In this document: positions 22,080 to 36,247 of the stretch, in pieces
How positions within the stretch are numbered: the first letter of the stretch is position 1
Layout of the letters: each line of letters starts with the position of its first letter
Source: Pseudonocardiaceae bacterium
GTDB lineage: Bacteria; Actinomycetota; Actinomycetes; Mycobacteriales; Pseudonocardiaceae
Assembly (NCBI GenBank): GCA_050700115.1
Contig: JBOHGG010000015.1
Location: forward strand, 33,725-97,724
Length of the DNA: 64,000 nt
Direction: 5' to 3'
Program-made: the position numbers and the translations under genes
The notes under the pieces: model-generated
What the model saw: the letters and a program-made list of their open reading frames with translations, nothing else
Databases searched by the model: none
Told to the model about the DNA's origin: nothing

Positions 22080-23204
22080 TCATTCTGCGGGGTCTGACCA
22101 GTCTCTTTGCCGGGCTTCGTCGATGAGGGTCTGGACGATCTGGTGTTCGGGGACGGTCTTGATGACCTTGCCGCGGACGAAGATCTGGCCTTTGCCGTTG
22201 CCGGCGGAGACGCCGAGGTCGGCTTCGCGGGCTTCGCCGGGGCCGTTGACGACGCAGCCCATGACGGCGACGCGCAGCGGGACGGGAAAGCCCTCGAATG
22301 CGGCGGTGACCTGCTCGGCGAGGGTGTAGACGTCGACCTGGGCGCGCCCGCAGGAGGGGCAGGACACGATCTCCAACCGGCGGGGTCGCAGGCCGAGGGA
22401 TTCGAGGATCTGGTTACCGACCTTCACTTCCTCGACAGGTGGGGCCGACAGCGACACCCGGATGGTGTCGCCGATCCCCTCGGCGAGCAGGACCCCGAAG
22501 GCCACGGCGGACTTGATGGTGCCCTGGAAGCGTGGTCCGGCCTCGGTGACGCCGAGGTGCAGCGGGTAGTCGCAGCGCTGGGCCAGCTGGCGGTAAGCGG
22601 CGATCATGACGAGCGGGTCATGGTGTTTGACGGAGATCTTGATGTCGCGGAACCCGTGCTCTTCGAACAGGGAGCATTCCCACAACGCGGATTCGACCAG
22701 CGCTTCGGGGGTGGCGTGGCCGTGTTTGGCCAGCAGCCGGGGGTCCAGGGAGCCGGCGTTGACCCCGATGCGGATCGGCACACCGGCGCCGGCGGCGGCC
22801 GCAGCGATCTGTTCGACCTTGTCGTCGAACTTCTTGATGTTGCCGGGATTGACCCGGACCGCAGCGCAGCCGGCGTCGATGGCGGCAAAGACGTATCGGG
22901 GTTGGAAGTGGATGTCGGCGATGACCGGGATCTGCGACTTGGCGGCGATGGCAGCCAGCGCGTCGGCGTCGTCCTGGCTGGGGACCGCGACCCGCACGAT
23001 CTGGCAACCGGTCGCGGTGAGCTCGGCGATCTGCTGCAGGGTGGCGTCGATGTCGCAGGTGCGGGTGGTGGTCATGGACTGGACCGAGACGGGCGCGTCG
23101 CCGCCGACGGGCACGCCGCCGACCATGACCTGGCGGGACGCCCGGCGCCGCGAAGCCGGCTGGCTGGGTGGTGCCGGCATGCCCAGTTCGACAGTTGTCA
23201 TCAC
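22080..23204 (-). CDS. ispG: HMBPP synthase IspG (GcpE)
   Basis: [42 protein letters not shown]. 4-nt overlap with dxs. Confidence 0.9.
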
Positions 23205-24991
23205 ATCTCCTTGGAAGTGACCTTCCCCCGGTGCGTGCTGGCGAGTCGTTTGAGGACGGCGGTGGCGATGCCGGCCGCATCCAGGCCGTGGGCGCGCAGG
23301 ATCTGATCGCGCGAGGCGTGTGGCAGGAACCGGGGTGGCAGGGCGAAGGTGGCCGCGCAGGTGTCCGCCCCGGCGGCGGCCAGCGCCTGGGCGATCCGGG
23401 CACCGAGCGCTCCGGTGGTCGTGGTTTCCTCGACGGTGAGCACCAGGCGGTGCGCGCCCGCCATTTTGAGCAGAGCCGGGTCCAGCGGCGCGATCCAGCG
23501 TGGGTCGATCACGGTGACCGGCACGTCGTGGGCGGCGAGCTCGTCGGCAGCGGCCAGGCAGGGCCCGGCCAGCGATCCGACGGCGACCAGCAAACCTACG
23601 GCAGCGGGGTCGTCACGGAGAATGTCGCACTGCCCGATCCTGCCGGTGGCGGGGATGTCTGGACCCGCGGTGGCCTTCGGGTAGCGGATCACGGTGGGCC
23701 CGTCGGCGATGTCGACGGCTTCGCGGAGCAGTTCGCGCAGCCGGGCACAGTCCCGGGGCGCGGCAAGACGCAGGCCGGGCACGACCGGCAGCACCGAGGC
23801 GTCCCACATGCCGTGGTGGCTGGGCCCGTCCGGGCCGGTGATCCCGGCCCGGTCCGCCACGATGGTGACCGGCAGCTGGTGCAGGGCGACGTCGGTGAGC
23901 AGCTGGTCGAAGGCCCGGCTCAGGAACGTGGAGTAGATGGCGACCACGGGGTGCAGGCCGCCGATGGCCAGCCCGGCGGCGCAGGTGACGGCATGCTGCT
24001 CGGCGATCCCGACATCGAACACCCGGTGCGGGAACCTCGCGGCGAAGGCGCCGAGACCGGTGGGGTGGAGCATCGCCGCGGTCAGGCACACCACGTCGTC
24101 ACGGTCGGCGCCGATCGCGGTGATCTCCTCGGCGAACACCGAGGTCCAGGTCGGCTTGCCGACCGAGCGGGGGCAGCCGGTGCTGGGATCGATGACGCCG
24201 ACGGTGTGCAGGCAGTCGGCGTCATCCTGCTCGGCCGGCGGGTATCCCTTGCCCTTGCGGGTGACGCAGTGCACCACGACGGGACGGCTCAGCCTGCTGG
24301 CCCGTCGCAGGGCGTTCTCGACGGCGGTGATGTCATGCCCGTCGACCGGTCCGAGATAGGCCAGCCCGAGATCCTCGAACAGCGTGTGCCGGTCCACCTT
24401 GGATTGACGCAGTTCAGCGAGGTGGCGGGCGAGCCCGCCGACGGTCGGTGAGTAGGAGCGTCCGTTGTCGTTGAGCACGATGATCACGGGCCGGTCCGGG
24501 GCCGCGCCGATGTTGTTGAGCGCTTCCCAGCACATGCCGCCGGTCAGCGCCCCGTCGCCGACGATCGCGACGACCCGCCGGTTGGCGTCACCCCGCAGCG
24601 CGAACGCCTTGGCCAGGCCGTCGGCGTAGGACAGGGCGGTGGAGGCGTGCGAGTTCTCGATGACGTCGTGGACGGACTCGGCCCGGGACGGGTAGCCGGA
24701 CAGACCGCCGGCTTGGCGCAGCGAGTCGAACTCGGCGCACCGGCCGGTAAGGATCTTGTGTACGTAGGCCTGATGCCCGGTATCGAAGAGCAGGACGTCC
24801 CGGGGTGAGTCGAACACCCGGTGCGCGGCGATGGTCAACTCGACCGCACCCAGGTTCGGTCCCAGGTGCCCGCCGGCGCCGGAAACCTTGTCGATCAGAA
24901 ACGCGCGGATCTCCTCGGCCAGCACAGCAAGCGCCGCGGTGGACAGTCCGGTGAGGTCGGCTGGCCCGGTGATGCGGCCGAGCAGGCTCAC
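23201..24991 (-). CDS. dxs: 1-deoxy-D-xylulose-5-phosphate synthase
   Basis: [50 protein letters not shown]. 4-nt overlaps on both sides. Confidence 0.9.
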
Positions 24992-34629: not shown

Positions 34630-34680
34630 TCCGTAGAAACTACGGACTTCGCCCGGTCCGTAGTTTCTACGGACCGGGCG
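34630..34680. promoter_or_regulatory. Paired palindromes TCCGTAG-N3-CTACGGA (x2) with alternative hairpins, upstream of the terpene operon
   Basis: 34630-34646 TCCGTAGAAACTACGGA. 34657-34673 TCCGTAGTTTCTACGGA, which extends to a 14+3+14 palindrome at 34650-34680. The two copies also pair with each other (17 bp). Confidence 0.6.
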
Positions 34681-36247
34681 TGAATCCGAACTCGGCGGCG
34701 CGGTGCACAAGCTGTTGTTTGGAGTCGACCCCCAGTTTGGGGTAACTGCGGGCGAGGTGGGTTTCCACGGTGCGCACGCCGATGTGGAGCCGGGTGGCGA
34801 TCTGCGGGGCGGTGTAGCCGCCGGCGGCCAGCTCGACGATCTGCCGCTCCCGTCTGGTCAGTTCGCCCGGGCCGTGGGTGGCCGCAGTGGTGCACTGTTC
34901 CTCCGACCCGGGCGGGATGGGCGGTGTGCGGGCCTGCTCGCGGCGCAGGACGGCTTCGCACGCGTCGAAACGACCCTGCTGGCCGGCCGTGGGCGCCAAC
35001 GCCTCGAGTGCGTCGCTTGCCTCGCGGTCCCCTGCCTGCGCCGCGCGGACGAAGTGCGACGCCGCAGCCTCCGTCCGCCCAGACCTGAGCATCGTCGCAG
35101 CCACCCGCCGGTGCATCACGCGCCGCCTGGCACCACCGATATCTGTGTAGAGCACCTCCCGGGTGAGCGGATGGGCGACTTGATAGCCCAAGAACCCGTC
35201 GTGCTGGTGCTCGATGACCATCCCAGAACGCACGAGCCGCTCCAGGGCAAGCGCGATGTCGTCGATCGGCTGCTCGGTGATCCGGGAGAGGTCGCCGGGA
35301 TCGATCAGCTCTCCGACGACGGCGAGCACCTCGACCAGCGCCAGGGCTGGCGGGTCGAGCCGCGCGACCTCGGTGCGGACCCAGCGGGCCAGTTTCTCCG
35401 GTACCCCGTCCAATGCAGGTGCCTGGAGATCTGCGCCGTTATCGACCAGTGCCTCCTGCAGCCCGACGGCGCACCGCGGGTTGCCCTGCGCCCGGGCTGT
35501 CAGCCAGTCCACGAGCGCTGACGGCACCCGGTCTCGTCCCACGATCTCCGCGGCCAGCTCCCGGACATCCTCCCGAGAAAACGGGGCTAGCTGAATCCGG
35601 CATACCATCGCTTCCTGCTCCAAGGCATGCAGCACCTCGACGGCCATCCGGTGCCTGGCCAGCTCCGCCGGCCGGGCGGTGGCGAGTACGAACAGCTGGC
35701 TGGCCGGAAAGTCCCACGCCAGCCGCAGCAGCATCTCCCACATCGCATCATGGCCCTGGTGGACGTCGTCGAGGACCACGATGATGGGCCGGTCAGCGCT
35801 CGCCTTAGCGAGTAGAGCCGGAATCCACTCGACGAGGTGGTAGCGAAGGGCGGCAGCGCACGCGGACGCGTCGTGCCCGATCTCGGTGTGGCGCCCGAGC
35901 GCCGGAAGGCCACCGAGGCCGCTCCCGCAGGCGCGACAGACCCCCTCAGGGTCCAGATCACCCGGCTGCAGGCCGAGAGCGTCTGCCCATGGGCCGAACA
36001 GCGGCATACCTCCCAGGGGGGAGCTGTGCGCGATCAGCCCGACGGCCGGCTCATCGTCGCGGGGCAGCAGTTCGGCCGCCAGCCGTGTCTTGCCCAGCCC
36101 TGCATCGCCGAGAACCAAGGCCACTCGCAGCTCACCCAGCGCGCTGCGGTGCCGCTCGGCCTGCAGCGCACAGAGCTCCCGCACGCGTCCCGGAACAAGG
36201 CGCCGGGTGCTTCCGGCGCAGCACAGTGAGCCGGTAGCGCTGGCCAT
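34667..36247 (-). CDS. AAA ATPase + LuxR-family transcriptional regulator
   Basis: Walker A GDAGLGKTRLAAELL. C-terminal LTRRERQIVELAAGGYTAPQIATRLHIGVRTVETHL. Confidence 0.8.
   Translation of the reverse strand: MASATGSLCCAGSTRRLVPGRVRELCALQAERHRSALGELRVALVLGDAGLGKTRLAAELLPRDDEPAVGLIAHSSPLGGMPLFGPWADALGLQPGDLDPEGVCRACGSGLGGLPALGRHTEIGHDASACAAALRYHLVEWIPALLAKASADRPIIVVLDDVHQGHDAMWEMLLRLAWDFPASQLFVLATARPAELARHRMAVEVLHALEQEAMVCRIQLAPFSREDVRELAAEIVGRDRVPSALVDWLTARAQGNPRCAVGLQEALVDNGADLQAPALDGVPEKLARWVRTEVARLDPPALALVEVLAVVGELIDPGDLSRITEQPIDDIALALERLVRSGMVIEHQHDGFLGYQVAHPLTREVLYTDIGGARRRVMHRRVAATMLRSGRTEAAASHFVRAAQAGDREASDALEALAPTAGQQGRFDACEAVLRREQARTPPIPPGSEEQCTTAATHGPGELTRRERQIVELAAGGYTAPQIATRLHIGVRTVETHLARSYPKLGVDSKQQLVHRAAEFGFTPGP

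Follow-up and report, generated by a model that had tools for sequence, protein, structure and literature searches.

Operons in which Family 2B encapsulin shells accompany terpene cyclases are already catalogued, and key parts of such systems have been shown by experiment in relatives of the organism considered here. Encapsulation of 2-MIBS was demonstrated in 2024 (Andreas & Giessen, PMC11550324), and the S. griseus EshA/Sg Enc system (PMC11550324; PDB 9bhu) has one shell gene, one cargo, and no precursor genes. Two-component operons make up 21% of Family 2B operons (PMC12407261). In their TC/PT type (Dutcher 2025, PMC12407261), TC cargos lie between Enc1 and Enc2, PT lies directly 3' of Enc2, and a diagnostic motif (TVWK versus RRRK) separates Enc1 from Enc2. 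Mixed two-component shells have been demonstrated for S. lydicus (2025, PMC12407261) and M. xanthus (preprint 10.64898/2026.07.21.739788), and GeoA encapsulation, driven by a GPTGLGT-type motif, has been demonstrated in M. xanthus (Fazal et al. 2026 preprint, 10.64898/2026.07.21.739788). According to the same preprint, 65% of GeoA-containing operons have two shells, and actinobacterial geoA is usually not beside an encapsulin gene. In another phylum, two homologous cNMP-binding-domain (cnb/Family 2B) genes bracket a methyltransferase and a cyclase in cyanobacterial cnbA-mtf-mtc-cnbB (PMC12159092), as they do here; that operon lacks genes for geosmin synthase, prenyl synthase, and the MEP pathway.

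The window analyzed here (64,000 nucleotides of a Pseudonocardiaceae contig) contains a tightly packed operon that joins two shell genes, both odorant cyclases, and precursor genes. Nine minus-strand genes occupy positions 22080-34553, with intergenic spacing of −4 to 66 nt, in the order Enc1-type shell (EncA), GeoA-like cyclase, 2-MIBS-like cyclase, GPP 2-C-methyltransferase (MT), Enc2-type shell (EncB), polyprenyl synthase (PT), ispH, dxs, and ispG. The coordinates, order, and identities of these ORFs in a preliminary description of this DNA were reproduced by ORF analysis, by Pfam and NCBIfam profile searches, and by publicly available gene calls made independently on this contig (GCA_973356965.1, CCWYAO010000112.1), whose gene order is identical. 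The AAA+LuxR gene reported upstream is also present (AAA_16 and GerE domains), and the span 22080-36247 thus holds ten genes, not nine; all ten proteins matched the expected Pfam/NCBIfam models above curated cutoffs. In the public gene calls, the gaps are 116 nt for LuxR-EncA (113 nt by ORF coordinates), 36 nt for EncA-GeoA, 38 nt for GeoA-MIBS, 66 nt for MIBS-MT, 55 nt for MT-EncB, 15 nt for EncB-PT, and 29 nt for PT-ispH, and the junctions are −4 nt for ispH/dxs and −1 nt for dxs/ispG (−4 nt with the longest ORF).

No strong hairpins were found in the internal gaps of the operon, a terminator search 3' of ispG detected none, and promoter and terminator scans performed no better than on shuffled sequence. 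The scans fit a reading in which the genes are neighbors rather than a functional unit, with the spacing explained by a compact actinobacterial genome and the MEP genes being housekeeping copies. We consider this extremely unlikely: ispH, dxs, and ispG are coupled by overlapping stop and start codons, cluster G+C (0.63-0.67) is lower than that of the flanks (0.70-0.73), the cluster splits a series of Emb arabinosyltransferase genes, and gene set and order are kept across Pseudonocardiales, Egibacteraceae, and Acidimicrobiia despite differing genomic contexts. In a comparison set of 49 related loci or genomes, dozens of genomes carry this gene set, whose co-occurrence therefore exceeds chance. 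Both cyclases are found in one operon in 29 of the 49 loci, mostly from uncultured Pseudonocardiales and Acidimicrobiia, and 24 of these 29 also have two shells. The survey of relatives proposed in the preliminary description recovered the order EncA>GeoA>MIBS>MT>EncB>PT in 13 loci and PT>ispH>dxs>ispG in 11. This clade is an exception to the usual separation of geoA from encapsulin genes in actinobacteria. The features that appear fairly new are the dual odorant cyclases per operon, the fused ispH-dxs-ispG trio, and a conserved promoter palindrome.

As in the TC/PT type, the locus has two CBD-bearing shell genes within 10 kb, cyclases between Enc1 and Enc2, a prenyl synthase directly downstream of Enc2, and the motifs TVWK (first shell) and RRRK (second shell). 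Since Enc1-TC-Enc2-PT is a named operon type and two-component operons are common, the presence of two shell paralogs is not the unusual feature that it was previously taken to be. Sequence comparisons support the identification of the 474- and 476-amino-acid proteins as Family 2B encapsulin shells. EncA (33129..34553, minus strand) and EncB (27087..28517, minus strand) match NF041163 with 766.5 and 760.3 bits (cutoff, 400), and both contain PF19307 (SrpI-like) and, as a CBD insertion, PF00027 (cNMP_binding), in line with the CAP-type domain reported earlier. Both give full-length matches to solved Family 2B cryo-EM structures (E values of 1e-185 to 1e-199), EncA being closest to Sl-Enc1 (9bje; 7.8e-191, residues 22-473) and EncB to Sl-Enc2 (9bix; 2.3e-199). 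Their identity is 71% over 472 amino acids, for which "about three quarters" was a fair estimate. The diagnostic TVWK lies at EncA residue 342, and the TVWK/RRRK split is kept in all Pseudonocardiales two-shell relatives; the first shells that deviate (L022, L023, L025, L028, L029, and L045; TV-R/NV-R/MV-R) belong to other lineages. By alignment, the Sg Enc cargo-pocket residues L264, L285, F430, and Y441 (PMC11550324) are kept in both shells.

By homology, EncA and EncB most likely build mixed T=1 HK97-fold shells together, and the CBD-fold domains would be displayed on the exterior; co-assembly and cargo loading are extrapolated from systems whose shells are 60 to 70% identical. Whether GeoA is encapsulated and whether the shells co-assemble had been called open; both have been answered experimentally in the M. 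xanthus and S. lydicus relatives. An alternative is that the operon is a fusion of two shell-plus-cargo modules forming separate compartments, an EncA shell for GeoA and an EncB shell for the 2-MIBS-like cyclase. Relatives show two gene orders, EncA-GeoA-MIBS-MT-EncB and EncA-GeoA-EncB-MIBS-MT, and in both EncA adjoins GeoA and EncB adjoins the MIBS-MT pair; moreover, the single shell of the simple Streptomyces 2-MIB operons (L038-L042) is closest to EncB, and the luminal loop (diagnostic motif 2), proposed in the literature as a possible cargo-selective site, consistently differs between the two shell types. These observations are countered by an essentially identical loading peptide in both cyclases, by the same four pocket residues in both shells, by relatives that combine two shells with only one cyclase (L022, L028, L035, and L044), which do not fit a one-shell-per-cyclase rule, and by both experimentally studied two-component systems, in which one of the protomers fails to assemble by itself and the shells formed are mixed. 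Separate compartments are therefore unlikely, and mixed shells are the preferred reading. The structurally studied S. lydicus system differs in being a xylulose-kinase operon whose cargo is not known, whereas two cyclases lie between the shells here, and the 10-residue luminal loop of EncB is unlike Sl-Enc2 motif 2 (GAELHGTDVR).

Both cyclases look like shell cargo, as previously proposed, and their sequences support this. The GeoA-like two-domain germacradienol/geosmin synthase (30855..33104, minus strand) matches NF041168 (f2_encap_cargo3; 1215.8, cutoff 1200) and, with an E value of 1e-149, PDB 5dw7/5dz2 (S. coelicolor GeoA N-domain); it has two PF19086 stretches, and catalytic motifs (segments of 15 and 14 residues) are present in its translation. 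The 2-MIBS-like single-domain cyclase (29488..30816, minus strand) matches NF041167 (f2_encap_cargo2; 516.6, cutoff 400), PDB 4zq8 (2e-53), and the 2-MIB synthase 3v1v (2e-51). The published cargo-loading peptide (10 residues), whose motif is GPTGLGT(SAAR) in 2-MIBS-like and GS-like cargos (PMC8346489), is present in both. In the GeoA-like enzyme, it lies in the interdomain linker (CLP1, 11 residues, at residue 349), with a degenerate copy at the C terminus (CLP2, 11 residues, at residue 728); in the 2-MIBS-like enzyme, it occurs (11 residues, at residue 68) in a G/A/P-rich N-terminal region of ∼140 amino acids that is probably disordered. The motif is kept in 42 of 45 MIBS-like and 23 of 28 GeoA-like orthologues. 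This short hydrophobic peptide is predicted to package both cyclases by docking in the pocket that is conserved at the three-fold axis inside the shell.

Sg Enc provides a parallel for the shell-cyclase-methyltransferase module, for a disordered N-terminal loading domain with GPxGLGT, and for conserved three-fold pocket residues. Likewise, M. xanthus has two Family 2B shell genes in its cluster and a GeoA with internal CLP1 and C-terminal CLP2 (a 12-residue segment); its shell genes both follow geoA, however, and its description includes neither a second cyclase nor methyltransferase, PT, or MEP genes. Unlike that of M. xanthus, CLP2 here is degenerate, and its 10 residues also differ from those in the 98%-identical protein of L037. 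The 2-MIBS-like cyclase is far from characterized 2-MIB synthases and would be placed with the divergent "branch 3" type; it is only distantly related to the characterized S. coelicolor enzyme, and its C11 product could differ from 2-MIB.

The findings support the view that precursor supply is encoded within the operon itself. The geranyl diphosphate 2-C-methyltransferase (28567..29421, minus strand) matches the equivalog NF041943 (536.7, cutoff 400), and PT (25977..27071, minus strand) is a trans-polyprenyl diphosphate synthase of the "Family 2 encapsulin-associated PT" family that matches PDB 3nf2 (E value of 1.6e-83). The Phe reported five residues before the first DDxxD was confirmed: the PT FARM is DDVLD at residue 110, and the 11-residue context has F at −5 followed by S at −4. 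A "short-chain" label is plausible, but Phe at −5 in a FARM that has no insertion does not discriminate among C10, C15, and C20. The MEP genes are ispH (HMBPP reductase; 24988..25947, minus strand; PF02401; NF002189, 454.5, cutoff 444), dxs (DXP synthase; 23201..24991, minus strand; TIGR00204, 559, cutoff 466), and ispG (HMBPP synthase; 22080..23204, minus strand; PF04551; NF001540, 529.6, cutoff 345). The DXS naturally lacks the mobile loop, and its top PDB matches are loop-truncated M. tuberculosis DXS constructs (8ogh and 7a9h). The hopanoid cluster of Streptomyces coelicolor has extra dxs and ispG copies. As in terpenoid clusters with extra MEP genes, dedicated copies of flux-controlling MEP genes would share a transcript with prenyl synthase and cyclase genes; unlike in those clusters, the ispH-dxs-ispG trio is joined to an encapsulin operon by translational coupling, and the DXS has no mobile loop. 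The fused precursor supply reported earlier is present but less unusual than claimed, as PT systems with precursor genes were noted in 2021 (PMC8346489).

Packaging of PT as well would yield a three-enzyme nanoreactor in which GPP/FPP is made and cyclized inside the shell, with substrate channelling. PT passes NF041169 (family 2 encapsulin nanocompartment cargo protein polyprenyl transferase; 477.9, cutoff 450) and lies directly downstream of Enc2, as do the putative PT cargos of the TC/PT type. Against this, motif searches found no loading peptide in PT, dxs, ispH, or ispG, a GPxGLGT-type peptide occurs in none of 33 PT orthologues, and PTs yielded no targeting motif in the 2021 survey (PMC8346489). 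PT also has no disordered N-terminal domain of 50 to 100 amino acids, aligning to the folded 3nf2 from residue 17; the methyltransferase, needed between PT and the C11 cyclase, likewise has no loading peptide, and the literature examined contained no experimental demonstration of PT encapsulation. A nanoreactor is thus a minority possibility, and we favor the peptide-free methyltransferase, PT, and extra DXS, IspG, and IspH copies being probably cytosolic, although the placement of PT could be wrong because its NCBIfam family is named as cargo. Co-expression would raise the supply of IPP/DMAPP, GPP/FPP, and 2-methyl-GPP while the cyclases are made.

The operon's terpene factory had further been described as cyclic nucleotide gated; in such a reading, cAMP/cGMP would bind to the CBDs and open or close the two-fold pores. 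Both shells do match PF00027, the CBDs are positioned above the two-fold pore, and mixed Mx shells show open and closed pore states. However, the CRP cAMP contacts E72/R82/S83 are replaced by V175/W182/A183 in EncA and by D/G/S in EncB. Sg Enc, whose CBD also lacks the cAMP-contact Arg and has Trp at the position aligned with EncA W182, does not bind cAMP; binding was not observed for the M. xanthus shells, which share the cAMP-binding fold (preprint 10.64898/2026.07.21.739788), and a published account states that cyclic nucleotides are not bound by the insertion domain. No nucleotide cyclase gene was found in the operon neighborhood. The CBDs are unlikely to be cAMP/cGMP sensors, and gating by these nucleotides is very unlikely. 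The account as a whole, i.e., mixed shells, two peptide-loaded cyclases, cytosolic supply enzymes, an operon with a spacer promoter, and CBDs that are unlikely cAMP/cGMP sensors, we regard as probable.

Transcription of the operon probably starts at a promoter between LuxR and EncA. The adjacent gene (34667..36247, minus strand) encodes a 526-amino-acid LAL-type regulator with PF13191 (AAA_16 ATPase) and PF00196 (LuxR/GerE HTH). It is a short form, shared with the closest relative (L037), that lacks ∼450 amino acids of a TPR-like central stretch: against the 990-amino-acid L002 orthologue, its residues 13-425 align with 27-439 and its residues 425-524 with 889-988. With its central domain gone, this LuxR may be nonfunctional. 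An exact-match search located two copies of the palindromic box TCCGTAG-N3-CTACGGA in the LuxR-EncA spacer (34630-34646 and 34657-34673), compared with 0.17 expected. The upstream copy holds the LuxR stop codon and extends into a 14-bp hairpin (RNA fold z = −6.3), the only strong hairpin of the region, at the LuxR 3' end. We propose that the box is a putative operator and/or LuxR terminator. The LAL/LuxR regulator is a likely binder of this 7-3-7 palindrome, although no LuxR homologue was found in the box-bearing loci L027 and L030 within the DNA fetched per locus. The exact box occurs in 19 of the 49 related loci, each time at the operon promoter region, including the divergent promoters of Acidimicrobiia loci. 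Alignment of relatives shows the conserved box followed by a TAnnnT element, here the candidate −10 element TAACAT (34602..34607, minus strand), 22 nt downstream of the proximal box, whose center would then lie near −43; relatives have TAAAAT, TACAAT, or TACAGT at the position of this candidate element.

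Ten minus-strand ORFs follow one another from 36247 down to 22080 in the high-G+C actinobacterial DNA of the window, and gene identities were assigned by Pfam and NCBIfam models. A LuxR-type regulator with AAA_16 and GerE domains (34667-36247; Pfam) is followed by the first shell protein, EncA, with SrpI-like and cNMP_binding domains (33129-34553), a GeoA-like two-domain terpene synthase of the geosmin synthase type (30855-33104), a 2-MIBS-like one-domain terpene synthase, the C11 cyclase (29488-30816), a GPP 2-C-methyltransferase (28567-29421; equivalog model NF041943, 536.7 against a cutoff of 400), the second shell protein, EncB (27087-28517), a polyprenyl synthase, PT (25977-27071), ispH (24988-25947), dxs (23201-24991), and ispG (22080-23204), these others being recognized by both sets of models. 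The nine genes from EncA to ispG are separated by −4 to 66 nt, both as longest ORFs and in the public gene calls for an identical sequence (contig CCWYAO010000112.1, assembly GCA_973356965.1), and the methyltransferase gene, whose product would supply 2-methyl-GPP, lies 66 nt downstream of the 2-MIBS-like cyclase gene. The ORF listing, domain models, and public gene calls, together with 71% identity between EncA and EncB, bear out the gene order, spacing, and identities given in the preliminary description. The shell genes share a strand and are ∼4.6 kb apart, inside the 10-kb criterion for two-component operons, and the layout is of the TC/PT kind, with the terpene cyclase (TC) genes between Enc1 and Enc2 and PT directly 3′ of Enc2.

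Homology places both shell proteins in encapsulin Family 2B. First, the SrpI-like, HK97-type shell domain (PF19307) is found in EncA (E = 6.5e-136) and EncB (E = 3.2e-138), and the Family 2B equivalog NF041163 (encap_f2b) scores 766.5 and 760.3 bits, respectively, against a cutoff of 400. Second, both align end to end with the cryo-EM Family 2B shells 9bje, 9bhu (the S. griseus EshA/Sg Enc shell), and 9bix at E values of 1e-185 to 1e-199 and 60 to 70% identity to the solved shells, compared with ∼1e-90 for the Family 2A shells 6x8m and 8t6r. Third, both carry the cNMP-binding-fold domain (CBD; PF00027, residues 121 to 208 in EncA and 119 to 211 in EncB) as an insertion N-terminal to the main HK97 body, the trait that separates 2B from 2A. 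Whether these proteins have an HK97 fold, a check posed in the preliminary description, is settled by this homology to experimental structures.

EncA and EncB split as Enc1 and Enc2. In two-component systems, diagnostic motif 1 reads TVWK in Enc1 and RRRK in Enc2, and motif 2, a luminal loop, reads AVDFHGHSLP and GAELHGTDVR, respectively (PMC12407261). Motif 1 is TVWK in EncA and RRRK in EncB; the luminal loop of EncA resembles the Enc1 form, and that of EncB is unlike the Sl-Enc2 form. Judged by their motifs, 9bje and 9bix appear to be the Enc1 and Enc2 of S. lydicus, and the best structural matches of EncA and EncB are Sl-Enc1 and Sl-Enc2, respectively. When 73 shell sequences from related loci are aligned, every Pseudonocardiales-type locus shows TVWK (or xVWK) in its first shell, and some Acidimicrobiia and Thermomicrobiales loci show TV-R, NV-R, CV-R, or MV-R there; RRRK marks the second shell of almost every two-shell locus (L012 has GR-R), and the luminal loop differs consistently between the two classes. 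The hydrophobic cargo pocket is conserved: four residues of Sg Enc (L264, L285, F430, and Y441) located at the interior three-fold axis under cargo density (PMC11550324) are identical in EncA and EncB, in a region that includes SYLVS.

The Rfam model RF02735 (Sernc350), a Saccharopolyspora antisense sRNA, matches full length and above its gathering score on the plus strand, antisense to the 5′ half of each shell gene, at 33994-34501 (103.6 bits) and 27976-28475 (81.6 bits). These matches could mark a genuine antisense RNA that targets Family 2B shell genes, or the model could simply be capturing conserved coding sequence.

The preliminary description envisaged a terpene factory gated by cyclic nucleotides through the CBDs of the shells. 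Alignment with CRP places V175, W182, and A183 of EncA at the cAMP-contacting positions E72, R82, and S83, which belong to the phosphate-binding cassette of CAP/PKA-type domains (CRP G71-E72 ... R82-S83); EncA lacks these canonical residues. The corresponding residues in EncB are D, G, and S, in an alignment made less certain by a 5-residue insertion. The Trp that EncA has at a contact position is shared by Sg Enc, a shell without cAMP binding. EshA has been characterized as a shell that packages 2-MIBS via the N-terminal domain of the enzyme and does not bind cAMP (Andreas & Giessen 2024, PMC11550324). Cyclic-nucleotide gating is contradicted both by the replacement of the contact residues and by the published non-binding of cAMP by homologous shells, and it was rejected; by analogy with these homologues, the CBDs of EncA and EncB would not sense cyclic nucleotides.

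The two cyclases share a cargo-loading peptide of the GPTGLGT type. In Family 2B systems this motif occurs in the disordered N terminus of 2-MIBS-like cyclases and, in GS-like cyclases, between the domains and again at the C terminus (PMC8346489). The GeoA-like protein contains two class I terpene cyclase domains (two PF19086 stretches), and its translation has Mg-binding motifs in both, namely, DDHFLE and NDLFSYQRE (N-domain) and DDYFP and NDIFSYQKE (C-domain). It scores 1215.8 against NF041168 (cargo3; cutoff 1200), its N-domain matches the S. coelicolor GeoA structure 5dw7 at E = 1.1e-149, and its loading peptides are located at residue 349 in the interdomain linker (CLP1) and at residue 728 at the C terminus (CLP2). 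The 2-MIBS-like protein has a single cyclase domain (PF19086, residues 199 to 395), preceded by a disordered N-terminal region (residues 1 to 140) of 39% G+A+P with a GPxGLGT-type peptide at residue 68, and scores 516.6 against NF041167 (cargo2; cutoff 400). As its similarity to S. coelicolor 2-MIB synthase (3v1v) is moderate (E = 2.1e-51), “2-MIB-type” is the right level of claim; its best structural match, 4zq8, is deposited only as “Isoprenoid Synthase.” Of 45 MIBS-like orthologues, 42 keep the GPTGLGT-type motif, as do 23 of 28 GeoA-like ones. CLP2 of the window's GeoA-like protein is degenerate, with two substitutions from a consensus that is intact in the 98% identical protein of the nearest relative, L037. 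A third, divergent MIBS-like cyclase (39 to 40% identity) with the peptide GPSGLGTSAA occurs in some related loci (L007, 12399-13484; L017, 4552-5631).

The remaining enzymes were also considered as cargo. PT, the methyltransferase, IspH, and IspG were rejected because they lack a loading motif, save in 1 of 45 methyltransferase orthologues, and none was found in the PT, dxs, ispH, or ispG orthologues of related loci. PT passes NF041169 (cargo4; 477.9, cutoff 450) and has no long disordered N terminus, aligning to the folded structure 3nf2 from residue 17; a short repetitive insertion relative to that structure occupies residues ∼283 to 300. A literature search found no product chain length for 3NF2, the closest structure to PT, and the F(−5)/S(−4) pattern, with no insertion in the FARM, is compatible with FPP-type as well as archaeal-type GGPP synthases. 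DXS was rejected because its PTGLGA, at residue 310, lies within the folded pyrimidine-binding domain; the site, with no preceding G-P, has a conserved counterpart, PTGLTAF, in the M. tuberculosis enzyme, and 0 of 20 DXS orthologues have a loading motif. Most of the mobile loop is naturally missing from the cluster DXS (596 aa). Among PDB entries, it is matched best by 8ogh and 7a9h, M. tuberculosis constructs with an engineered truncation of this loop, and the native-length construct 7a9g aligns to it in two pieces.

A survey of relatives, as proposed in the preliminary description, shows that the layout recurs. A single scan with the C11 cyclase as the query, run against species-representative genomes, gave 49 loci, whose synteny was mapped by tblastn. 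Almost all are in metagenome-assembled genomes (MAGs) of Pseudonocardiales/Pseudonocardiaceae, Egibacteraceae, and Acidimicrobiia, and the cultured Streptomyces among them have only the simple shell-cyclase-methyltransferase operon. At the species level, the window is closest to a Pseudonocardiaceae MAG, L037, whose proteins are 92 to 98% identical. Both cyclases are present in 29 of the 49 loci, 24 of which have two shells. The order EncA>GeoA>MIBS>MT>EncB>PT is identical in 13 loci and PT>ispH>dxs>ispG is found in 11; a variant, GeoA>EncB>MIBS>MT>PT, occurs in four, and a third gene order, by strict count, in three Acidimicrobiia loci (L023, L029, and L045). Four loci (L022, L028, L035, and L044) combine two shells with the C11 cyclase only, which argues against a strict one-shell-per-cyclase design. 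In one close relative (L049, 7692-11257), GeoA is missing and a MIBS-like fragment of ∼330 nt remains between EncA and the methyltransferase, which may represent a deletion or an assembly artefact.

Between 21.5 and 37.5 kb, strong secondary structure is limited to the spacer between the regulator gene and EncA (z = −6.3), where it consists of two 7-3-7 palindromes, TCCGTAG-N3-CTACGGA, at 34630-34646 and 34657-34673 (two matches versus 0.17 expected). The upstream box includes the stop codon of the regulator gene and extends to a 14-bp stem. This box is conserved: it is exact in 19 of the 49 loci, with ≤2 mismatches in a few more, from Pseudonocardiales to Acidimicrobiia, and always lies ∼80 to 250 nt upstream of the first shell gene or, in Acidimicrobiia, in divergent GeoA/MT or GeoA/EncA spacers. 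Usually there are two copies, 27 bp apart in the window and 49 to 66 bp apart elsewhere. In an alignment of seven upstream regions, TAnnnT is conserved 22 nt downstream of the proximal box, which would put the transcription start near 34595 on the minus strand and the box center near −43, where class II activators of the LuxR type usually bind.

The regulator (526 aa) appears to be of the LAL type. LAL regulators have an N-terminal AAA/NTPase, a central TPR-like sensor region, and a C-terminal LuxR HTH and are ∼900 to 1,100 aa long; compared with a 990-aa orthologue (L002), the protein of the window has an in-frame loss of ∼450 central (TPR-like) residues, and the short form is also found in L037. 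The Acidimicrobiia locus L024 encodes an orthologue whose HTH is 68% identical. Judging from this genomic context, the regulator may act at the box. Two Acidimicrobiia MAGs (L027 and L030) have GeoA, the methyltransferase, MIBS, PT, and dxs clustered, with loading peptides and box present; there is no shell gene within the 15 to 21 kb examined, and no homologue of the regulator was seen in the DNA examined around these loci.

No internal terminator-like hairpins stand out within the operon, and with strong structure confined to the spacer upstream of EncA, a single EncA-to-ispG transcript would be the simplest reading of the sequence. The 228-nt spacer after ispG, searched for a terminator, folds no better than shuffled sequence (z = 0.22), and a scan for consensus promoters and terminators over 21 to 38 kb was at background.

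The operon fits the current picture of Family 2B encapsulins closely and leaves that picture unchanged. Among Family 2B operons, 904 have terpene cyclases, 900 have prenyl transferases, and 165 have both, many encode two shells, and prenyl transferase systems often include precursor biosynthesis genes (Andreas & Giessen 2021, PMC8346489); 503 operons, or 21% of the family, are two component (Dutcher et al. 2025, PMC12407261). Most of the preliminary interpretation holds, but the two shells, their bracketing of the cyclases, and the fused precursor supply, which were initially considered unusual, are already catalogued features of a known system (PMC8346489, PMC12407261). Encapsulation of GeoA and co-assembly of the shells, initially described as open, were answered in relatives in 2025 and 2026: protomers co-assemble into mixed shells in S. 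lydicus and M. xanthus (PMC12407261; 10.64898/2026.07.21.739788), and in M. xanthus, CLP1 and CLP2 mediate the loading of GeoA into a two-component shell (Fazal et al. 2026, preprint 10.64898/2026.07.21.739788). Two shell genes are found in 65% of GeoA-containing operons, and actinobacterial geoA genes mostly do not lie beside an encapsulin gene (10.64898/2026.07.21.739788); the clade of the window, with geoA within the encapsulin operon, is an exception to this rule. Literature searches and the text of encapsulin papers from the Giessen laboratory gave no explicit description of GeoA and 2-MIBS in one encapsulin operon, although census figures or supplements may include such operons. The residual novelty would lie in a natural cargo set with two cyclases, the coupling of the ispH-dxs-ispG trio, and the conserved operator.

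We predict the following. By homology with characterized systems, for which assembly into closed, cargo-containing T=1 shells of ∼27 nm has been demonstrated, EncA and EncB would co-assemble into mixed T=1 shells into which both cyclases would be loaded. The gene context suggests that the methyltransferase, PT, and MEP enzymes may act outside the shell, raising substrate supply. The mechanism as a whole, including co-packaging of both cyclases in one mixed shell, appears reasonably probable to us from the combined analysis. A more specific version is tentative, and we rate it below even chances: the mixed Enc1/Enc2 shell would natively co-package the C15-to-geosmin and C11 2-MIB-type cyclases, which would compete for the three-fold pocket via near-identical peptides; the proportion of the two cargoes would be set by the Enc1:Enc2 ratio or by the luminal loop characteristic of each shell class; and the unit, with its DXS-IspG-IspH-PT supply, would be switched on via an undescribed 7-3-7 operator kept from Pseudonocardiales to Acidimicrobiia. 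If this version is true, the operon would encode the first natural terpene encapsulin with several cargoes, several products, and a defined regulon.

Geosmin and 2-MIB are the main earthy/musty taste-and-odor compounds of soil and drinking water. At least 24 relatives in uncultured soil actinobacteria have both cyclases with one shell pair and one precursor module, a combination that provides a natural test bed for questions in the encapsulin field, i.e., whether two-component shells serve multiple cargo, how cargo ratios are set, and whether the prenyl synthase is packaged too. The conserved promoter box provides a starting point for working out what turns on odorant production.

The terpene island is enclosed by a cell wall arabinan region (7790-21929 and 39116-47467) containing four EmbC-like arabinosyltransferase genes (12704-15910, plus strand; 18873-21929, 39116-42466, and 43067-46384, minus strand), a DprE1-like FAD oxidase gene (7790-9400, minus strand), and a GT2 gene. 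The G+C content of the island (0.63 to 0.67, versus 0.70 to 0.73 in the flanks), its setting in an arabinan region, and the placement of the cluster in other genomic contexts in relatives suggest that it arrived by insertion or transfer. Directly upstream of the LuxR-type regulator gene are genes for a TetR regulator (36789-37505, plus strand) and an RPE65-family carotenoid-cleavage-type dioxygenase (37596-39107, minus strand). Toward the end of the window are tRNA-Ser(TGA) (57279-57366, plus strand) and an ALIL pseudoknot (59767-59895, minus strand), the frameshift signal of the IS3 family, and G+C falls to 0.58 to 0.59 over 60000-64000; an insertion sequence or another kind of mobile DNA probably occupies this end.
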